Source: a virus
Taxonomy: Duplodnaviria; Caudoviricetes
Virus record (IMG/VR): IMGVR_UViG_3300006097_000004
Span: 1-51,349 of that record
Length of the DNA stretch: 51,349 nucleotides
Reading direction: 5' to 3' (one strand)
How positions within the stretch are numbered: the stretch's first letter is position 1; every line of letters begins with the position of its first letter. The position numbers and the translations under genes were made by a program. Shown in pieces: positions 2,916 to 19,296 of this stretch. Below the pieces are notes generated by a model that was not told the DNA's origin, did no database searches, and saw only the letters and a program-made list of their open reading frames with translations.

Positions 2916-3719
2916 TTATTTTCTCCCCAGCATTGCAGCCATCTCGGGGTACAGTCTCCGGGCGAGCGCCTGGGGGCTGTTGCCGTCAGACCCTCCGCCT
3001 GAGTTTCCATCAGGATTCAGGGACCCGTCAGTGAAACTCTTTGCCATGTCAATCATGCCGTTGACGAACCAATCCTTGACCCCAAGGCCTGACTCGCGGA
3101 TCTCCTTCATACCTTCGACGCCGAAGAATCGCTTCAGGGTGGCGTTGGTCCCGTCGATCCGCTGCTGGTAGTCGTTTGGATACTTCTGCTTGATCTGCTG
3201 TATGGTGGCGTCCCGAGTCTTGTTAAACTCCTCCGCCTGTTTCTGCTGATAGTCCTGTATCCGCTGCTCGTTATACTTCAGGATGGCCTCTGCCTGTTGC
3301 GGGCTCAGGAGGTTCTTATGGGCAAACTCGGCGAACTCTTTGGCAAAATCCTCCGTATACCCCTCGAACGTGTACGCCCCGGGGTCATCTGGAAGCCCCA
3401 TAGCCTTCCGATACTCTGCTATCTCCTGATCAGTCGCCCCTTCCGCCAGCGGCTTCACCGCTCCGTCGTACCCCTGGAGCTTCTGGTTCAGCTCTTCCTG
3501 TGTCGTGTACACGCTTTTCAGATAATCTCCGAAGGAGTCGAACTCGGCCATCTCCGGCCGGACAAGATCCTTCGGGATATTCTGGGTCCACGGCTTATAC
3601 TGCGGTTCCGCGCTCTGGCTTCCAGCTCCCTGTCCATCTCCTGCTGCAGGCTGCGGTGCCTGCATTCCAGGATCAGACGAAGTCGCCTGGGGCGCTCCGC
3701 CCTGATCTACATCACCCAT
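2916..3719 (-). CDS. Capsid scaffolding protein
   Basis: Low-complexity N terminus, YRKAMGLPDDPGAYTF, FAHKNLLSPQQAE, C-terminal ARRLYPEM; lies between portal and capsid. Confidence 0.75.
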   Translation of the reverse strand: MGDVDQGGAPQATSSDPGMQAPQPAAGDGQGAGSQSAEPQYKPWTQNIPKDLVRPEMAEFDSFGDYLKSVYTTQEELNQKLQGYDGAVKPLAEGATDQEIAEYRKAMGLPDDPGAYTFEGYTEDFAKEFAEFAHKNLLSPQQAEAILKYNEQRIQDYQQKQAEEFNKTRDATIQQIKQKYPNDYQQRIDGTNATLKRFFGVEGMKEIRESGLGVKDWFVNGMIDMAKSFTDGSLNPDGNSGGGSDGNSPQALARRLYPEMAAMLGRK

Positions 3720-7172: not shown

Positions 7173-7498
7173 ACTACCCTCACCACCCGTGAACTCATGA
7201 CCATCTTGGTCACCTTTTTCATCTTTCCGTCCGGACCCTTCACGTCGATGGCCTTTGCCGTCTTCTCTCGGACCTCGACAGCCTGGCGACCGACAAGACG
7301 CCTCATCTCATTCAGGAAGTCTGCTCTCAGGTCTGCGGATATATCCATCGCATGGACAGCGCAGGCCCGCAGGAAGTCCTCGACGTTCATATCGAACTCA
7401 GCCAGCACCAGGGCCAGCTCCTCCGCGAACTCCTGGGTGACCTCTACCTTCGGTATTGTCGTCCGTTTTCCAGCATCCGCCCCTGCCTCTTTCGCCAT
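7169..7498 (-). CDS. Hypothetical protein
   Basis: RBS GGGAGG; co-oriented with the operon. Confidence 0.55.
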   Translation of the reverse strand: MAKEAGADAGKRTTIPKVEVTQEFAEELALVLAEFDMNVEDFLRACAVHAMDISADLRADFLNEMRRLVGRQAVEVREKTAKAIDVKGPDGKMKKVTKMVMSSRVVRVV

Positions 7499-8190
7499 GA
7501 TTCCTCCCGTATTTTCATCGGATCTGATATTATCGTCCTCGTAATCTTACCCCCTGCGGGCACATACGTCAATGATGCACCGTACAGCTTCACAAAGTAC
7601 CAGCAGATCAGCCCCAGGGCTATGACCATATCATCGTGGATCACGTCCAGCCGGTTCTCGTACTTAACCGATCCGTTGGCCTTCCTCTTCATCTCGAACT
7701 CCGCGAGCTGCTTCTGGATAAGGTCGGCATGTTCAAGCCCGTTGGCAAAGGACAGTCTTCCCGTGTGCAGCAGGGCAATGACAGAGTCCACCAGTTTCAC
7801 TTTCGGCACATTGACAAACCCGTCTTGTCTGGTGGTCTCGTACTCTCCTGCGGTGATCTTCACTCCCCACGGGATTACCTTGCTCTCTCTGATGATATCA
7901 ACAACCGGCGTTCCCACCCCGGTGGCATCCATGATCATCTGGTTATTGCCGATGAACTGCTTATGCTTCGCCAGGTCCACCAGCCTCCGGGCTATCTCGG
8001 TGTAGGGCGTTCTTAAAGGTATCTGCTCTGAATAGACGATAGACAGACGCCTCTCGATTGCATCCTCATGGTAAAGCCCGCCGGTCCTGGCCTTTGTCAT
8101 TGAGGTCGGGGTCTGTATCAGCTTTCCTATCAGTATCGCTGTGGGGTCTGTATCCCTTCCCAGGTCTGCCCCGATTATGTATTCCTTCAC
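7444..8190 (-). CDS. Terminase large subunit, stand-alone RNase H-like nuclease domain
   Basis: YIIGADLGRDTDPTA, MDATGVGTPVVD and HDDMVIAL acidic motifs; GTG start overlaps the ATPase gene stop (GTGA). Confidence 0.8.
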   Translation of the reverse strand: MKEYIIGADLGRDTDPTAILIGKLIQTPTSMTKARTGGLYHEDAIERRLSIVYSEQIPLRTPYTEIARRLVDLAKHKQFIGNNQMIMDATGVGTPVVDIIRESKVIPWGVKITAGEYETTRQDGFVNVPKVKLVDSVIALLHTGRLSFANGLEHADLIQKQLAEFEMKRKANGSVKYENRLDVIHDDMVIALGLICWYFVKLYGASLTYVPAGGKITRTIISDPMKIREESWRKRQGRMLENGRQYRR

Positions 8191-9038
8191 AGTTTCACCG
8201 CCTCGATCCCGTTTGTGGGAATCTGTATACCGCTCTCAATGTTCAGCGCCGCATCTCCGCGCCCTCGCACAAACGCAGCGCCGACCAGGTCGGTCCCGAA
8301 GACCTGCATCTCGTTGTCCACAAACTCGCAGTAATACTCCTGCCTGAACAGCCACTCCGGCATTCTTCGCCGCTCCTGGTCAAGGAACTCCTGAGAGATA
8401 CGCGGGATATCATCTGCAGTAATCTTGATCTTCAGGACGTTTGGATCATCCGGAGCGTGGAACTCCTCGAAGAAAAACCCTCGGCGGCCCTTCGGGCTCG
8501 ACAGGATGATAACCCTGGCCTTCGTGTTGTTGGTTGCTATCATCGGCCTGATGGCATAGTACAGATCGTCGGAGGCCATTGCAGCCTCATCGACGATGAT
8601 CAGATCCGGAGCAGAGAACCCGCGGATAGTGCGCTCGTCGGCCCCTGGGAGGGCAAAGGCCCTGGAACCGTTCTGAAGGACAACAGACTTCGCTGCCACC
8701 GATTGAGGTCTGACATAATCCCAATCAATGTAAGCCCTGGACTTTATGAGCAGCTCCTGGCTCTGTCGCTCAGAAGGGGCAAGGATAAGGGTTAGAGACC
8801 GCTCTCTGGTCTCAAGCATATTCGCCACCAGCGCCGCGTTGATCTCGGTCTTTCCTGCCTGTCTGGTGCAGCAGATGATGGTGGTCTGCGCTGTACCGTC
8901 GGCCACCTGTGCCTGCCAGGGGTCAAGATCCAGGCCCCTGGACCGTATCCAGCGCGAGGGATAAATCTCTGACATGAGATCAGACAGGAGACCATAGGAG
9001 CCCAGCTCGTTATATGGTGATTCCCCGGTCAATATCAT
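8187..9038 (-). CDS. Terminase large subunit, stand-alone ATPase domain
   Basis: LDPWQ, Walker A TRQAGKT, APSERQS, Walker B LIIVDEAA, motif III LSSP, FRQEYYCEF. Confidence 0.85.
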   Translation of the reverse strand: MILTGESPYNELGSYGLLSDLMSEIYPSRWIRSRGLDLDPWQAQVADGTAQTTIICCTRQAGKTEINAALVANMLETRERSLTLILAPSERQSQELLIKSRAYIDWDYVRPQSVAAKSVVLQNGSRAFALPGADERTIRGFSAPDLIIVDEAAMASDDLYYAIRPMIATNNTKARVIILSSPKGRRGFFFEEFHAPDDPNVLKIKITADDIPRISQEFLDQERRRMPEWLFRQEYYCEFVDNEMQVFGTDLVGAAFVRGRGDAALNIESGIQIPTNGIEAVKL

Positions 9039-9535
9039 GGCAAGTCTACATCCCCATCGTCCAGCCGCCTCTCAAGCTCGCGGGCGACATCCGGGTATTG
9101 CTGCAGTGTCTCTTTCAGTATTCCCCAGAGCTGGACGAACGCTGGGTCTGTTTTGAATGATCCCGCCCGCACACTACGCAGCTCTGCGGCAACCTGGGCC
9201 GCAGCTCGTATGTTCTTCGCTATCTGGTCCAGAATTATTGGCCGCCGGTCGTCAATGGCCATGAGCTGCGCCGTCTCCCTGGGCTCCAGCTCACCGCTGT
9301 CCATGGCTTCCCTGATGGCCTCTGTCTTCTTCTCCTGCTCCTTGTACAGCTTTATCAGCTCCGCCCGGGCCCAAGCCAGATAATCAGAAGCCAGGACCCC
9401 GGCCTCTATCTCCTCAGCCGCCAGCCCCTGGATCTCTTCCAAGATATCACTATTTCTTCCCTGAGCCCTCTTCAGGTCCAGGAGAGCCCTGTCTGTCGCT
9501 GTCCTCGGTCGTAATGTTTGTGCCTTCGTTCCCAT
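9035..9535 (-). CDS. Putative terminase small subunit
   Basis: Helical protein, first gene of the packaging operon; ATG 9535 preferred over the track start because a promoter occupies 9543-9571. Confidence 0.5.
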   Translation of the reverse strand: MGTKAQTLRPRTATDRALLDLKRAQGRNSDILEEIQGLAAEEIEAGVLASDYLAWARAELIKLYKEQEKKTEAIREAMDSGELEPRETAQLMAIDDRRPIILDQIAKNIRAAAQVAAELRSVRAGSFKTDPAFVQLWGILKETLQQYPDVARELERRLDDGDVDLP

Positions 9536-9542
9536 CAGTAAA

Positions 9543-9571
9543 ACTCTACCACATAAAGGGTAATAAGGCAA
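9543..9571 (-). promoter_or_regulatory. Late promoter giving a probably leaderless transcript
   Basis: TTGCCT-17 bp-(TG)TAGAGT, 7 nt before ATG 9535, no SD. Confidence 0.55.
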
Positions 9572-9618
9572 ATACTATACATCCGTGTAGTATCCCGGAT
9601 TATTCTTTTGCTCTTTTG

Positions 9619-9670
9619 TTGACATTATTTTGACATTCTATTGACATACCCCCCACCTATGTGCTATACT
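9619..9670 (+). promoter_or_regulatory. Early promoter with three phased TTGACAT repeats
   Basis: TTGACAT at 9619, 9630 and 9641; the last is followed after 18 bp by TATACT (9665-9670) with an extended -10 TG. Confidence 0.7.
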
Positions 9671-9865
9671 CAGATCATGGTTGAGGGAGAGCGAGGCACT
9701 CCCCACCGGGGATCATTGACATAGGGCTTACAGCAGGAGCGGGGATTGTAACCGTGGATAGCTGGAGGGGCACCGAGGAGCAGACGGTATTTCTGCGGCT
9801 GAGCATGACAGCATTCATGCAGCAGCTTCCTCAGCACGGGGCGGGGGAGCTGTAGAGCGAGATTC

Positions 9866-9915
9866 TGGTCTGTATCTGATGCGGATACACTGATGAGCCC
9901 AGCAGGGCGAAACCG
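9866..9915 (+). ncRNA. Hammerhead ribozyme, type III
   Basis: UGGUC^ (cut after 9870), stem I UGUAUCU/GGAUACA, core CUGAUGA 9890-9896, stem II GCCC-AGCA-GGGC, GAAA 9909-9912, CCG closing stem III; loop I (GAUGC) is complementary to loop II (AGCA). Confidence 0.88.
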
Positions 9916-9928
9916 ACAGGGGGATAAT

Positions 9929-10219
9929 ATGGAATACAATAAAAACTACCAAGATATTGCCAGCTTCAAATGTGAACGAGCTTTGCTCTACCACGACAGC
10001 TACAGAGATGCCAGACCTGCTGAGAAAGTTATTACGCTTTATCAGATAAACCGCAAAGTCTATTCCAGGGTCGGGAACGGCAAAAAGCTTTACTTCATGG
10101 CCAATCAGGAGCTCATCATCGAGATGGAGAAGGATGATGATTATTCGAACCTCTTCCGCCTCGTTTTCTCGAACGGAAGCAAATACCAGCATTGGGATAT
10201 TCTGGAGAGAGTAAGCTGA
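9929..10219 (+). CDS. Hypothetical early protein (96 aa) flanked by two hammerheads
   Basis: ATG 9929 with AGGGGG RBS (MEYNKNYQ...); the track start at 9893 falls inside the ribozyme core. Confidence 0.7.
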   Translation: MEYNKNYQDIASFKCERALLYHDSYRDARPAEKVITLYQINRKVYSRVGNGKKLYFMANQELIIEMEKDDDYSNLFRLVFSNGSKYQHWDILERVS

Positions 10220-10282
10220 GTCGAAACCCGGATACGTCCGGGTCCGCGGTGGAATGGCCTCCCCGCGCTGATGAGACAGGCT
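10220..10282 (+). ncRNA. Hammerhead ribozyme, type II (pseudoknotted)
   Basis: GUC-GAAA, stem III CCCGGA-UACG-UCCGGG, GUC^ (cut after 10244), stem I CGCGG/CCGCG, core CUGAUGA 10268-10274, GAC closing stem II; loop I GCCU pairs with 3' AGGC. Confidence 0.92.
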
Positions 10283-10300
10283 ACAGAAACGGAGGGAAGT

Positions 10301-11173
10301 ATGGCAAGCAATAAAGAAATCGCAGGATATGTTATTGAGCAGATTGAAAAGCTTCTTGACCAGCCGCTTAGCTGGAGCAATGGCCGGAAAGATTTTAGTT
10401 TCCCGCATAACCCGGTGAGCGGCACCAGCTACAAAGGAATCAACGTTTTTTCTTTGGCGGTAGACACCCTCGCCCATGGCTACAAGAGTAGCAGATACAT
10501 GACTTACAATCAAGCCAATAAGCTTGGCGGGCAGGTCCGGGCAGGAGAGAAGTCCAGAATTATAGTCTTCTGGAAAATGCTTCGCACAACCGACAAAGAC
10601 AACCCCGACAAGCAGAAGTTGATCCCCCTGCTCCGCTATTATCGGGTATTTAATGTTGACCAGATAGACGGACTTCCAGAGAAATATCAGGCTCCTGAGT
10701 TCGAGGACATGGAAACCCTGCAGGCGTCTGAAGATCTTGCAGCCAGTTTCTTCTCCAGGGAGAAGGTAACCCTGCACGAGGCCAACGGGACCCCGAGCTA
10801 TTCGCCCGAGCTTGACAGGATATTCGTTCCTCCTATCGGGCACTATGAGAGCTCTTCCAGGTACTATGAGACCCTGTTTCATGAGATGGTTCACAGCACG
10901 GGGCACCCTTCGCGATTGAACAGGGAGCTCTCGATGATGCCAGATTCTTACGCCAAAGAGGAGCTTATCGCGGAGTATGGTTCGGCGATACTTTGTGCCA
11001 TGACCGGATCTGCCAATGGGTTCGAGAACTTCGCAGCCTATATCAAGTCATGGTGGCACCACGTAAAAGAAAATCCAATGGACCTCGTATCCGCGGCAGG
11101 CAAAGCCTATCAAGCGGTTGAGTATATTGAAGGCAAAGCCTCTGGGGAAGAGGCTGGCGCCAACGCAGCGTAA
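10301..11173 (+). CDS. ardC: ArdC family ssDNA-binding antirestriction protein (N-terminal ssDNA-binding domain plus zincin-like domain)
   Basis: PHNPVSGTSYKGINV, YMTYNQANKLGGQVRAGEKS, YYRVFNVDQIDG, YYETLFHEMVHSTGHPSRLNR, YAKEELIAE; ATG 10301 with GGAGG. Confidence 0.92.
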   Translation: MASNKEIAGYVIEQIEKLLDQPLSWSNGRKDFSFPHNPVSGTSYKGINVFSLAVDTLAHGYKSSRYMTYNQANKLGGQVRAGEKSRIIVFWKMLRTTDKDNPDKQKLIPLLRYYRVFNVDQIDGLPEKYQAPEFEDMETLQASEDLAASFFSREKVTLHEANGTPSYSPELDRIFVPPIGHYESSSRYYETLFHEMVHSTGHPSRLNRELSMMPDSYAKEELIAEYGSAILCAMTGSANGFENFAAYIKSWWHHVKENPMDLVSAAGKAYQAVEYIEGKASGEEAGANAA

Positions 11174-11186
11174 AGGAGAGAGATCT

Positions 11187-11489
11187 ATGAACAAGGCTGA
11201 TTATCGTGCATACCTGATTGAGCAGGCTGCAGGCTTCGGAATCCCCTCCCGCATGACGGATGGGCTCGTATCATATATCGTCGACGGACAGCGGCCCGGT
11301 GGATTCCTTGAGGCCGTACTGAGCAATGATCTGAACGCTGCTGTCGCCAGGGGAGATGATGAGAACCGGAAGCTCCTGTCGAACTACATTCTTTTCCTGT
11401 TCAACAGGGCCCCCGGCGGCTGCTGGGGTAACCGGGATCTCTTCGAGTCCTGGGAAGGCATGAACCTTGAGGAGGGGGAGGATGATTGA
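11187..11489 (+). CDS. Conserved phage hypothetical protein
   Basis: ATG 11187 after AAGGAG; YIVDGQRPGGFLEAVLSNDL...APGGCWG. Confidence 0.7.
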   Translation: MNKADYRAYLIEQAAGFGIPSRMTDGLVSYIVDGQRPGGFLEAVLSNDLNAAVARGDDENRKLLSNYILFLFNRAPGGCWGNRDLFESWEGMNLEEGEDD

Positions 11490-11847
11490 TTATTACTTTG
11501 TTGAGGATGCCGCCGGCAGGCGGTTTGTCTCCTGCCTCGGTAGAGACGAGGCTGCGAAGCTTGCCGAGTCCGGAACAACGGTAAAACTTTGCGGTGAGCC
11601 TGGGGCCTTCACTGAAAGCGGAAGGGTCCATAGATATATTCACTGCCCGCCGAGTGCCTGGGCTGCAGATCAGGGGGCAACAGACTCGCTCCTCATCGAG
11701 GCAGAAATGTTCTACACCACGGCGGGCCATCTTGCAGGCTCATGCACAAGGCCAGCCATCGTTGGAAAGACGGTTGCTTATATCGGGGTCGACGAGGACG
11801 ACCGAGGGAAAATCGTATGGGAAAAATGGAAAATCAGGAGAAGGTAA
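11482..11847 (+). CDS. Hypothetical protein
   Basis: ATG 11482 after a purine-rich RBS, overlapping the previous stop. Confidence 0.55.
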   Translation: MIDYYFVEDAAGRRFVSCLGRDEAAKLAESGTTVKLCGEPGAFTESGRVHRYIHCPPSAWAADQGATDSLLIEAEMFYTTAGHLAGSCTRPAIVGKTVAYIGVDEDDRGKIVWEKWKIRRR

Positions 11848-11975
11848 GGTACTGCGAAAAGTGTGGCGGTAAAACCATCGTCACATACCGCAGGATCTTC
11901 GGCAGAGAAGGGAACGAGCAGGGAAAGGATCTGTTTGACGAGTGTGTCCGCTGCGGGCATAGAAGGAGGTTTTGA
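11817..11975 (+). CDS. Small zinc-ribbon protein
   Basis: CEKCGG...CVRCGH; ATG 11817 after GAGG. Confidence 0.5.
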   Translation: MGKMENQEKVRYCEKCGGKTIVTYRRIFGREGNEQGKDLFDECVRCGHRRRF

Positions 11976-12329
11976 ATGTTCAAGATGGTAGAGGTCCTTA
12001 TACACGACCGGAAAGAGCTGTACGGCTGGCGGCTGAAGTCTGTTCTCTGGATGCTCCAGCGGCTGCAGGATAAAATATACGGAAAGCCGATGCAGCTCGG
12101 GTTTGAGACCCTCAGGGGCCAGGTTTACTCGATACGGCACGAGCTGAATGTGATCTGGCTCTATGCCCATGGCTGGAATTATGTTCCCTGGTGGGGAGGC
12201 GGAGGCAGTGGAGAAGCGTACATGAAAACCCTAAACGCCGCATACGCCGAGAGGAGGTTCAACGGAAGCCAGAAGAGACCCGGGACAATGACCATAAAAG
12301 AGCTTAAGCTCGCATTCAAGGAGGTGTAA
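11976..12329 (+). CDS. Hypothetical protein
   Basis: RBS AGGAGG; operon continuity. Confidence 0.6.
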   Translation: MFKMVEVLIHDRKELYGWRLKSVLWMLQRLQDKIYGKPMQLGFETLRGQVYSIRHELNVIWLYAHGWNYVPWWGGGGSGEAYMKTLNAAYAERRFNGSQKRPGTMTIKELKLAFKEV

Positions 12330-13216: not shown

Positions 13217-13367
13217 CGACAACGCATATTCATACGATTTTCCCTGCTGCCATGAGCTGTGGGACAGGGAAACAGAGGGGCTCAAGCCCTGCGGAGATAC
13301 TCCGACCCGCGAGGTAAAACGCGGTCGGTTTGTATGCGAGAAGCATGATATTTTAGGAGTACGCTGA
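13065..13367 (+). CDS. Hypothetical protein with C-terminal Cys/His cluster
   Basis: Stop overlaps the ERF start (TGATG); CC...PC...CEKH. Confidence 0.45.
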   Translation: MTREQAEAMVNLMRGQSPKRRLEPWARENLSYYLRATSMSEFLGKNGITIDDNAYSYDFPCCHELWDRETEGLKPCGDTPTREVKRGRFVCEKHDILGVR

Positions 13368-14116
13368 TGGAAGAAGAGAAAGCCCTACAGGCCGCGAGCA
13401 ATAATATTGTTGCCGCGGAAAACCCTATCCAGTCCCTGGTTGAGAAGGCACTGGATAAGCAGGTAGACGTTGAAACGCTGGAGCGGATCATCGCCCTGGC
13501 CGAGAAGACCCAGGCGACGATCGACCAGAAGGAGTTCGAGTACCACTTCGGGCTCATGCAGCAGGAGTTTGAGCCGGTCCACAAGACGCGGTCGGTTAAG
13601 ACAAAGAGCGGGGATCACGCCTATTCCTATGTGAACCTTGACGACATTCTCGCGGTGTATAAGCCGATACTGTCCCGGCATGGGTTCTCCTATCGCTGGG
13701 AGGAAGAGACAGTCACCCCGGACCTGAAGAGAATAACCTGCGTTATTGCGGGGTACGGGCACGAGAAGAGAAGCTCTGTCGAGGTCCCGATACCCCCGGC
13801 GTCGTCCATGACCAACAGCATCCAGCAGCGAGGATCTGCGACATCCTACGGGAAACGATACTCATTCTGCTCGGCTGTCGGCGTAATCATCCAGGATGAG
13901 GACGACGATGCAGCGGGCCTTACCTTTGCCGATGGTGTCCGCTACTCGGTTTTCGTCGATGCCATGAATAAGGCTGAGGATCTTGAAAAGCTGAAGTCCG
14001 CCTGGGCATCCTGCTATAAGGAGCTGAGCAAGGCCCGGGATAATGACGGCCTCGAAAAGATGAGCGGGATATACACCAGCCGGAAGGAGCGGCTTACCAA
14101 TGGATCAGAGAACTGA
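13367..14116 (+). CDS. ERF family single-strand annealing protein
   Basis: YSYVNLDDIL...PILSRHGFSY, QQRGSATSYGKRYS...GV...EDDD. Confidence 0.88.
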   Translation: MEEEKALQAASNNIVAAENPIQSLVEKALDKQVDVETLERIIALAEKTQATIDQKEFEYHFGLMQQEFEPVHKTRSVKTKSGDHAYSYVNLDDILAVYKPILSRHGFSYRWEEETVTPDLKRITCVIAGYGHEKRSSVEVPIPPASSMTNSIQQRGSATSYGKRYSFCSAVGVIIQDEDDDAAGLTFADGVRYSVFVDAMNKAEDLEKLKSAWASCYKELSKARDNDGLEKMSGIYTSRKERLTNGSEN

Positions 14117-18937: not shown

Positions 18938-19022
18938 GGATGGCGCCGCTGAGTTGGTCGGCGACCGGTCTTGAAAACCGGGGGTGCGTGAAAGCGTAGG
19001 GGTTCGACTCCTCCGTCATCCG
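18938..19022 (+). tRNA. tRNA-Ser(UGA), non-canonical 8/4 fold, no encoded CCA
   Basis: Acceptor GGATGGCG/CGTCATCC, D stem CGCTGA/TCGGCG, anticodon arm CCGGT-CTTGAAA-ACCGG, long V arm, T arm GGGG-TTCGACT-CCTC, discriminator G. Confidence 0.85.
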
Positions 19023-19024
19023 TT

Positions 19025-19108
19025 GGAAGCATGCCAGAGAGGTAATGGGCCAGTTTGCTAAACTGTGACGCGGGAAACCGTGCGGAGGTTCGATCCCTCC
19101 TGCTTCCG
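19025..19108 (+). tRNA. tRNA-Ser(GCU), canonical 7/5 fold, no encoded CCA
   Basis: Acceptor GGAAGCA/TGCTTCC, anticodon loop TTGCTAA, V arm CGCG-GGAAAC-CGTG, T arm GGAGG-TTCGATC-CCTCC, discriminator G. Confidence 0.92.
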
Positions 19109-19296
19109 TAGACCGTTTGCTGTTGGCTACGGTCAAACCCCGTGAGGTGATCGGGGAGCGCACAAGCGCATATTATTATTCAAAGGATTTTAGGCATTCT
19201 TTCTGACAATCGGTAGTTGTAGTGGGCTGCAGGTTGTCCCTCCGTACCCCGGCAGAGAAGAGGTTGCCGGGGTACATTTTCTACAGGAGAAAGCGT

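Follow-up and report, generated by a model that had tools for sequence, protein, structure and literature searches.

What does a phage gain by placing self-cleaving RNA motifs on both sides of one small gene? The question is raised by the virus record IMGVR_UViG_3300006097_000004 from the IMG/VR database, which was analysed as a whole (51,349 bp, rated 100% complete; hereafter the window). An earlier note, made from the letters of the window, described a type III hammerhead ribozyme before, and a type II hammerhead behind, an open reading frame (ORF) of 96 amino acids (aa), here called orf96. That two hammerhead motifs bracket the first small gene of an early operon is confirmed at the level of sequence, the operon being called early because of its gene content. 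Both ribozymes are probably active. Their cuts would fall co-transcriptionally in the early transcript and would yield a leader, a 374-nucleotide (nt) orf96 mRNA and an mRNA that begins with an ArdC-like anti-restriction gene (ardC). The motifs, their placement, the covariation of their family and the geometry shared with other phages are observed directly. The features of the locus, including the ribosome-binding sites (RBSs), are as follows.

9641-9670, plus strand: sigma-70-like promoter (TTGACA, 18-nt spacer, TATACT, extended -10 TG; 11 of 12 consensus matches)
9677-9870, plus strand: G-rich 5′ leader of about 194 nt, its extent taken from the inferred transcription start and the type III cut
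9863-9918, plus strand: type III hammerhead, predicted cut between C9870 and U9871
9918-9924, plus strand: RBS of orf96, AGGGGGA, 4 nt before the ATG at 9929 and 3 nt past the last paired ribozyme base
9929-10219, plus strand: orf96, an orphan of 96 aa from the ORF list
10219-10285, plus strand: type II hammerhead, predicted cut between C10244 and C10245
10291-10296, plus strand: RBS of ardC, GGAGGG, read from the sequence
10301-11173, plus strand: ArdC-like anti-restriction gene (PF08401, ArdcN, 9.8e-28; PF18818, MPTase-PolyVal, 2.4e-28)

Two hammerhead motifs around orf96

The motif downstream of orf96 matches the Rfam family RF02276 at 10219-10285 on the plus strand, over model positions 1-66 of 66, with 44.4 bits against a gathering score of 37. 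Its stem II pairs GUC (10220-10222) with GAC (10275-10277), and GAAA follows the first strand. Stem III, of 7 bp (10226-10232 with 10237-10243), leads to a U, to C10244 and to the cut; stem I, of 5 bp (10245-10249 with 10263-10267), carries a 13-nt loop and is followed by CUGAUGA at 10268-10274. The core is canonical, loops close off stems I and III and stem II is open (descriptor stems of 5, 3 and 7 bp), and stems III and I appear in the minimum free energy (MFE) fold. A stretch of loop I (10255-10260) is complementary to the 3′ tail (10278-10283) and could form a 6-bp pseudoknot. Loop I with the 3′ tail after stem II is the usual place of the type II pseudoknot (Perreault et al. 2011, PMC3088659). 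The stop codon of orf96 (TGA, 10217-10219) directly precedes the ribozyme, which begins on the next base and takes up most of the 81 nt that separate orf96 from ardC. The type II ribozyme that the earlier note had placed here, cutting after C10244, is therefore borne out by a match above threshold; the pseudoknot that the note gave it is a possible one, seen as a 6-bp complementarity.

Upstream of orf96, RF00008 matches 9863-9918 on the plus strand over its full model with 34.1 bits, at an E-value of 2.7e-5 in a 1.1-kb search and of 1.3e-3 when the whole window was compared with all families. The seed of RF00008 consists mostly of plant viroid and satellite sequences. Read from the sequence, every core position is canonical, with CUGAUGA at 9890-9896 and GAAA at 9909-9912. 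Stem I (9871-9876 with 9884-9889, 6-8 bp) and stem II (9897-9900 with 9905-9908, 4 bp) are present in both the MFE and the centroid folds, and in stem III GGU (9867-9869) pairs with ACC (9912-9914), next to a U9866.G9915 pair. This is the type III topology, in which stem III is the open one and stems I and II are closed; the descriptor counts stems of 8, 4 and 4 bp. A complete type III hammerhead that cuts after C9870, ahead of the orf96 RBS, had likewise been claimed, and the canonical core, the full-model match and the descriptor match agree on it. The Rfam comparison accordingly matched both sites, the type II above its gathering score and the type III below.

The type III motif could be compared with others of its kind. 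A gapped pattern modelled on the window ribozyme matched 23 viral contigs, of which 20 pass the stem descriptor, and an alignment of 20 rows that includes the window copy was made. In this alignment, 86.6% of cells pair, as against 69.0% in column shuffles (none of 500 reaches the observed value) and 33-50% when partners are slid, and 12 pairs vary on both sides. A four-pair helix between loops I and II, which neither the pattern nor the descriptor demands, pairs in 60% of cells across the 20 rows, and at three positions both partners change. The window copy is able to form three of these pairs, a possible contact of UGC with GCA. Several of the phage relatives carry an RBS-like purine run within about 20 nt downstream, as the window does. 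The window motif is thus placed, by alignment, in a covarying subfamily of phage type III hammerheads.

Chance was assessed with a descriptor of our own, which requires the exact core and minimum stems and covers all three hammerhead topologies. On both strands of the 51 kb it finds these two hammerheads only. In 200 dinucleotide shuffles of the window it returned 2 type I, 11 type II and 8 type III matches (21 in total), or about 0.1 per window, of which type III accounts for about 0.04. No further ribozyme of any class came up when the whole window was scanned with Rfam at a permissive cutoff (E<=1). Both motifs lie on the sense strand, in intergenic gaps and downstream of the promoter with 11 of 12 consensus matches, and they delimit a unit of 374 nt (9871-10244) in which orf96 is the only ORF. 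The locus accordingly presents two same-strand hammerheads 374 nt apart around one ORF, behind one promoter and with no terminator between them. The sense orientation and the unit described earlier stand, as coordinates, descriptor and promoter strand agree, and so does the single small ORF between the ribozymes.

Ribozyme-bounded genes in other phages

Two same-strand hammerheads around a single gene are also found in other viral contigs. A type II pattern modelled on the window ribozyme matched at least 120 viral contigs and, among the matches listed, both pattern sets together gave a sample of 143 loci. The descriptor finds 227 hammerheads in these loci, 46 of which hold between two and eight, always on one strand (46 of 46). 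Neighbouring hammerheads are nearly always close, 85 of 87 pairs lying within 2 kb of each other with a median unit of 469 nt, and in 59 of the 85 units one ORF covers at least 60% of the length. These ORFs start at a median of 54 nt after the cut and stop at a median of 26 nt before the next; the corresponding distances in the window are 58 and 25 nt. The geometry of the window matches that of the 59 comparable phage units. Its order of types, with the type III first and the type II second, is seen in five cases, for example in locus L294, with a unit of 369 nt and an ORF of 95 aa. Because the loci were chosen for having such ribozymes, the survey demonstrates recurrence of the layout but gives no measure of its frequency among phages.

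The longest examples are same-strand arrays of type II motifs: eight hammerheads in L206 (8125-11317, plus strand), seven in L285 (241-2684, minus strand) and seven in L238 (3617-6699, plus strand). They are spaced 250-900 nt apart, mostly with one small ORF per unit; one unit of L206 encodes ArdA. Few unit ORFs belong to named families. Among 84 of them, orf96 included, at most seven match Pfam: ArdA (2), DUF932 (2), DUF6011 (2) and Mu Gp27 (1). Comparison with PHROGs gave three matches named 'anti-restriction protein' and a small number with names from replication or packaging; most of the families matched have no assigned function. The two DUF932 proteins lie in the ribozyme-bounded units L300 5276-6319 and L252 628-1482. 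DUF932 is a family common on conjugative elements.

The link to anti-restriction genes was followed from the side of ardC, in 160 ArdC-like loci (80 viral, 80 from genomes). The descriptor gives eight matches in seven of these loci, where about two would be expected from the shuffle rate. In four of the 160, a sense-strand hammerhead starts 2-11 nt past the ArdC stop codon:

L003 3753-3816, sense strand: candidate hammerhead after the ArdC stop, viral contig
L005 3775-3822, sense strand: candidate hammerhead after the ArdC stop, viral contig
L028 802-862, sense strand: candidate hammerhead after the ArdC stop, viral contig
L158 2626-2684, sense strand: candidate hammerhead after the ArdC stop, bacterial genome contig

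Three of the four, together with a second motif in L003, receive 21.5-26.6 bits from Rfam, below threshold; the fourth, in L028, was not reported at E<=1. At the gathering threshold, Rfam matched nothing in the 20 ArdC-like loci examined. These motifs are candidates identified by the descriptor, that is, by a complete core and stems. Five GenBank phages that carry ArdC-like genes were also covered; in one of them, MW202801.1, a type II hammerhead of 45.1 bits (3465-3517 of its locus L331) begins 1 nt past a small ORF that follows ardC. Taken together, the survey suggests that the layout is common, geometrically stereotyped and recurrent beside ArdA- and ArdC-type genes. Judged by these comparisons, the window exemplifies an arrangement widespread in phages, in which ribozymes delimit units of a single gene and anti-restriction genes are often linked to these units.

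The layout itself was described in phages in 2011, and the window adds one clean example. Clustered hammerheads flank single genes, including ardA, or short blocks of genes in prophages, and cleave in vitro and in Escherichia coli (Perreault et al. 2011, PMC3088659). Among them, a trio in Agrobacterium tumefaciens flanks ardA and cleaves in E. coli, and in three Legionella strains ardA lies behind a hammerhead (PMC3088659). Like the window, these prophage clusters have same-strand hammerheads of mixed type that bracket genes of a polycistronic phage transcript, and an anti-restriction gene adjoins a ribozyme. They differ in that the gene is ArdA, whereas the window has an ArdC-like gene, downstream of the second ribozyme and not between the two; the bracketed gene of the window is an orphan, and its first ribozyme lies in the 5′ untranslated region (UTR) of the operon. 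Identical or ArdC-adjacent cases may already stand in the cluster lists of Perreault et al. 2011. In open-access text, no paper was found on ArdC-linked hammerheads or on long hammerhead arrays.

Two further systems are close to parts of the arrangement. In the haloviruses HF1 and HF2, the HHphage hammerhead lies a few nt upstream of the first early ORF, and a mapped transcript 5′ end falls within 3 nt of the cut (PMC3088659). Like the type III motif of the window, it stands just upstream of the first ORF of an early polycistronic transcript; it differs in belonging to an archaeal virus, in its variant core, which needs high salt, and in being single, whereas the window has two ribozymes, both canonical. 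In Desulfovibrio vulgaris, in vivo cleavage was detected for three type II hammerheads close to phage-like genes, both kinds of end having been captured (Olzog et al. 2021, PMC8782182). They share their Rfam family with the window, but lie at three separate chromosomal loci and form no gene-bracketing pair.

The survey also bears on the ribozyme-bounded mobile gene cassette that the earlier note had suggested. Here the ribozymes would act also, or mainly, at the DNA level, as conserved boundary repeats of about 55 bp that serve as linkers for homologous recombination and cassette swapping. This is compatible with RNA processing, and it is a possibility that we hold tentatively. By tblastx, 67 of the 85 units have no homologue among the others, and the nine two-member families come mostly from near-identical contigs. 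The clearest case is the pair L241 and L285, whose shared backbone is 95% identical as far as the first ribozyme. Between L241 796-1557 and L285 1812-2684 one unit has been exchanged for a different one, and L285 has a further unit that L241 lacks. The breakpoints are sharp and fall at the hammerheads or within about 20 nt of them: 1210|1471 in L241, with hammerheads at 1156-1210 and 1491-1557, and 2224|2599 in L285, with hammerheads at 2172-2224 and 2618-2684. The hammerheads of the two arrays cross-match at 73-88% identity, and the genes flanked by hammerheads in prophages are described as 'not constant' (Perreault et al. 2011, PMC3088659). This is, however, one informative pair of related arrays, and one of its breakpoints (606-795 vs 1240-1811) is not at a hammerhead. 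Phage early regions are mosaic in any case, so that intergenic boundaries are expected without a special linker. In the window itself, the two ribozymes are of different types with little common sequence, and the searches found no relatives for comparison. What remains of the cassette proposal is indirect, at the level of the family and of DNA, and comes from the L241/L285 pair.

An extension of the same idea is that hammerhead arrays mark hypervariable early counter-defence islands, in which the units are autonomous single-gene modules and the repeats are linkers for module swapping. This is conceivable rather than probable. If it were true, orf96 and dozens of orphan unit ORFs would be candidate anti-defence genes, and the arrays a handle with which to search for others.

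Probable cutting and possible joining of the early transcript

We infer from these features that the RNA is cleaved, that the genes are co-transcribed and that the phage benefits. Transcription from the promoter at 9641-9670 would begin near 9677, as judged from the promoter. The type III ribozyme would cut after C9870 and discard the leader of about 194 nt, because the promoter lies upstream and the plus strand holds no terminator through 11600; none was seen there from 9300 onwards. The type II ribozyme would cut after C10244 and part orf96 from ardC and the genes that follow. Three products are predicted. The leader would end in a 2′,3′-cyclic phosphate. The 374-nt monocistronic orf96 mRNA would carry a 5′-OH, a 2′,3′-cyclic phosphate and a compact ribozyme fold at each end. 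The downstream mRNA, with ardC as its first cistron, would begin with a 5′-OH and the stem I hairpin.

The likely purpose is that each cistron becomes autonomous, its stability and translation independent of its neighbours and of the leader, and that each may gain defined, structured ends. Synthetic biology uses a comparable device. In the RiboJ insulator, an engineered part derived from plant satellite RNA, a hammerhead between the promoter or leader and the RBS removes variable 5′ context, so that downstream expression becomes independent of it. By analogy, the phage layout may be a natural counterpart of synthetic ribozyme insulators.

The leader could be released as a separate small RNA with a cyclic-phosphate end. 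Its fold (9655-9870) has a z-score of -1.74, and 7 of 200 shuffles fold as well, which is weak evidence of structure; Rfam reports no family for 9677-9870 at E<=1.

Processing of the early mRNA is the best-supported reading of the locus, and the same was proposed for this layout by Perreault et al. 2011 (PMC3088659), where processing into single-gene mRNAs is the favoured idea for prophage clusters. A review of 2019 (PMC6765202) regards the purpose of phage hammerheads as undefined and states that 'additional work is needed'. A layout that is common, stereotyped in geometry and recurrent beside ArdA- and ArdC-type genes allows a direct test of why phages would divide their early mRNAs into single genes. 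The window is a convenient experimental case for it, with two ribozymes of different topology, one ORF of 96 aa, a strong promoter and an anti-restriction gene.

Several points weigh against this account. Partition-function modelling of uncut and cut RNA, which ignores tertiary structure and ribosomes, shows no gain in accessibility at either start site. The unmasking of an RBS by cleavage was dropped as an explanation, the unpaired probabilities around both starts being no higher after the cut; since no RBS is freed in the models, they offer no explanation for a benefit of processing. A 5′-OH can also mark RNA for decay, as in the glmS ribozyme product that RNase J1 degrades, and RNase E is stimulated by a 5′-monophosphate. 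Any effect on stability may therefore go in either direction depending on the RNases of the host. The survey loci were picked by patterns modelled on these very ribozymes and filtered by stem, and are a biased sample. In the type III alignment, the pattern fixed the core-adjacent bases and the descriptor set minimum stems, so that part of the stem pairing stems from selection. No relative of this phage emerged across all searches, and no RNA run is listed as containing the region. Finally, the 34.1 bits of the type III motif fall below the RF00008 gathering score of 48.5, and its open stem III has only three Watson-Crick pairs and one wobble.

This low score and very short stem III are also what would be expected if one of the motifs, most likely the type III, were an inactive relic or a chance match. 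Only the orf96/ardC junction, or neither, would then be processed; some clustered hammerheads may indeed be non-functional (Perreault et al. 2011, PMC3088659). We consider this unlikely. The type III core has no deviation and an E-value of 2.7e-5, and the motif is placed relative to the RBS like its covarying phage relatives. About 0.04 chance type III matches are expected per shuffled window, and this one lies 374 nt upstream of a same-strand hammerhead, in a 5′ UTR.

If both cuts take place, as the processing account holds, the excised unit raises a further question, whether it is joined into a circle. Hammerhead cleavage leaves 5′-OH and 2′,3′-cyclic phosphate ends, which are the substrates of RtcB. 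As the earlier note envisaged, the 374-nt unit might be circularised. This could come about through reversal of the hammerhead cleavage at a rebuilt type III core, or through an RtcB-type ligase of the host, and would give a stable circular mRNA. The chemistry of the ends fits RtcB, and both cut sites do read GGUC, so that, formally, the 16.x strand of the type III ribozyme is regained at the junction. This agreement counts for little as evidence, since the motif itself fixes U16.1, H17 and the G that faces the conserved C of GAAAC, and the shared GGUC needs only one coincidental G beyond them.

The rebuilding of a type III core thus stands at the level of sequence and fails in the fold. In the circular partition function of the 374-nt unit, the three junction pairs of stem III (GGU with ACC) have a probability of 0.0, and enforcing the rebuilt ribozyme costs +9.9 kcal/mol (-94.6 to -84.7). 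These pairs are disfavoured because the type II ribozyme holds the 3′-terminal GGGU in its own stem III, a hairpin of 7 bp (pair probabilities 0.79-1.0). An open stem III of 3-4 bp also favours the release of the product over religation. No circular or spliced products were detected from such clusters when they were sought (Perreault et al. 2011, PMC3088659), and no paper on phage hammerhead circles was found in open-access text. Circularisation is accordingly without support, and we regard it as very improbable.

Retrozymes and viroid-like circles (PMC7761336) offer a further comparison. There, as in the window, two hammerhead cuts release a unit with ligatable end chemistry, but identical repeated ribozymes reform at the junction, and the RNAs are non-coding or replicate as RNA or via reverse transcription. 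In the window, the two ribozymes have different topologies, rebuilding the core would cost about 10 kcal/mol and there is no sign of mobility at the RNA level.

orf96, ardC and the rest of the record

The earlier note had also spoken of anti-host mRNAs. Such a role is plausible for the downstream ArdC-like gene, whose Pfam domains are an ArdcN single-stranded DNA-binding domain and a zincin-like metallopeptidase; orf96 itself matches no Pfam or PHROG family. The ArdC-like protein has 4300 homologues at E<=1e-10, the closest full-length ones being 47-50% identical, and a 168-aa fragment matches 58% of the query at 98% identity. For orf96, a word-indexed search of 5.8 billion proteins returned only orf96 itself, and an exhaustive search of 1.84 billion representatives gave one distant homologue (98 aa, 40% identity). 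An AlphaFold2 model is beta-rich and of low confidence (predicted local distance difference test, pLDDT, 56). In a protein atlas, orf96 has no usable feature match, and its structural neighbours reach template-modelling (TM) scores of at most 0.55 for a model with a pLDDT of 0.50. The layout may also point to unexplored early genes.

The search for phage relatives of the window took several routes. None was found by blastn of 9600-11200 against GenBank phages, by protein-guided scans of viral contigs with orf96, ArdC, the terminase large subunit (TerL) or an alignment of orf96 with the protein P0002, or via P0002, which occurs on a single 1400-bp contig, in metagenome contigs. The best tblastn match of ArdC in GenBank phages is 39% identical and yields no relative. 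A pattern specific for the type II motif retrieved 25 loci from metagenome contigs that share only the ribozyme with the window (72-82% identity over about 60 nt), and no phage relative. Neither orf96 nor P0002 has a homologue in any retrieved comparison locus.

In the record as a whole, the ribozyme pair stands at the start of an early-type operon that runs rightward, divergent from the packaging genes. The flanking landmarks are:

8187-9038, minus strand: terminase large-subunit ATPase ORF (Terminase_6N), left of the ribozyme region
13367-14116, plus strand: ERF-family recombinase, right of the ribozyme region

Further minus-strand ORFs lie left of the ribozyme region, beside the terminase ORF. 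The terminase large subunit is seemingly split between 8187-9038 and a 248-aa ORF at 7444-8190 (minus strand, no Pfam match); the two overlap by 4 nt in different frames. The gene could be truly split, or the break could come from a programmed frameshift or from an indel in the assembly. At the promoter, TTGACAT occurs three times on the plus strand with 11-nt spacing (9619, 9630 and 9641; span 9619-9647), and the third copy is the -35 box. These repeats may be alternative -35 boxes or operator sites. A 363-aa open frame on the minus strand (9815-10906) runs antisense to both ribozymes, orf96 and most of ardC; it is probably spurious and due to codon bias on the opposite strand.

Two tRNA-Ser genes (anticodons UGA and GCU) lie 1 nt apart at 18938-19109 on the plus strand; for the first, Rfam gives tRNA-Sec below threshold (42.5 vs 47). 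Four metagenome DNA runs from three studies (anaerobic-digester, sludge, unlabelled) contain contigs of 150-255 nt at a depth of 2-5 that match 9220-12000. Some are identical or near-identical and others 80-92% identical, and one piece of 255 nt is identical over 10138-10392; as DNA matches they have no bearing on expression. By these matches, the runs offer a hint of the habitat of the phage.

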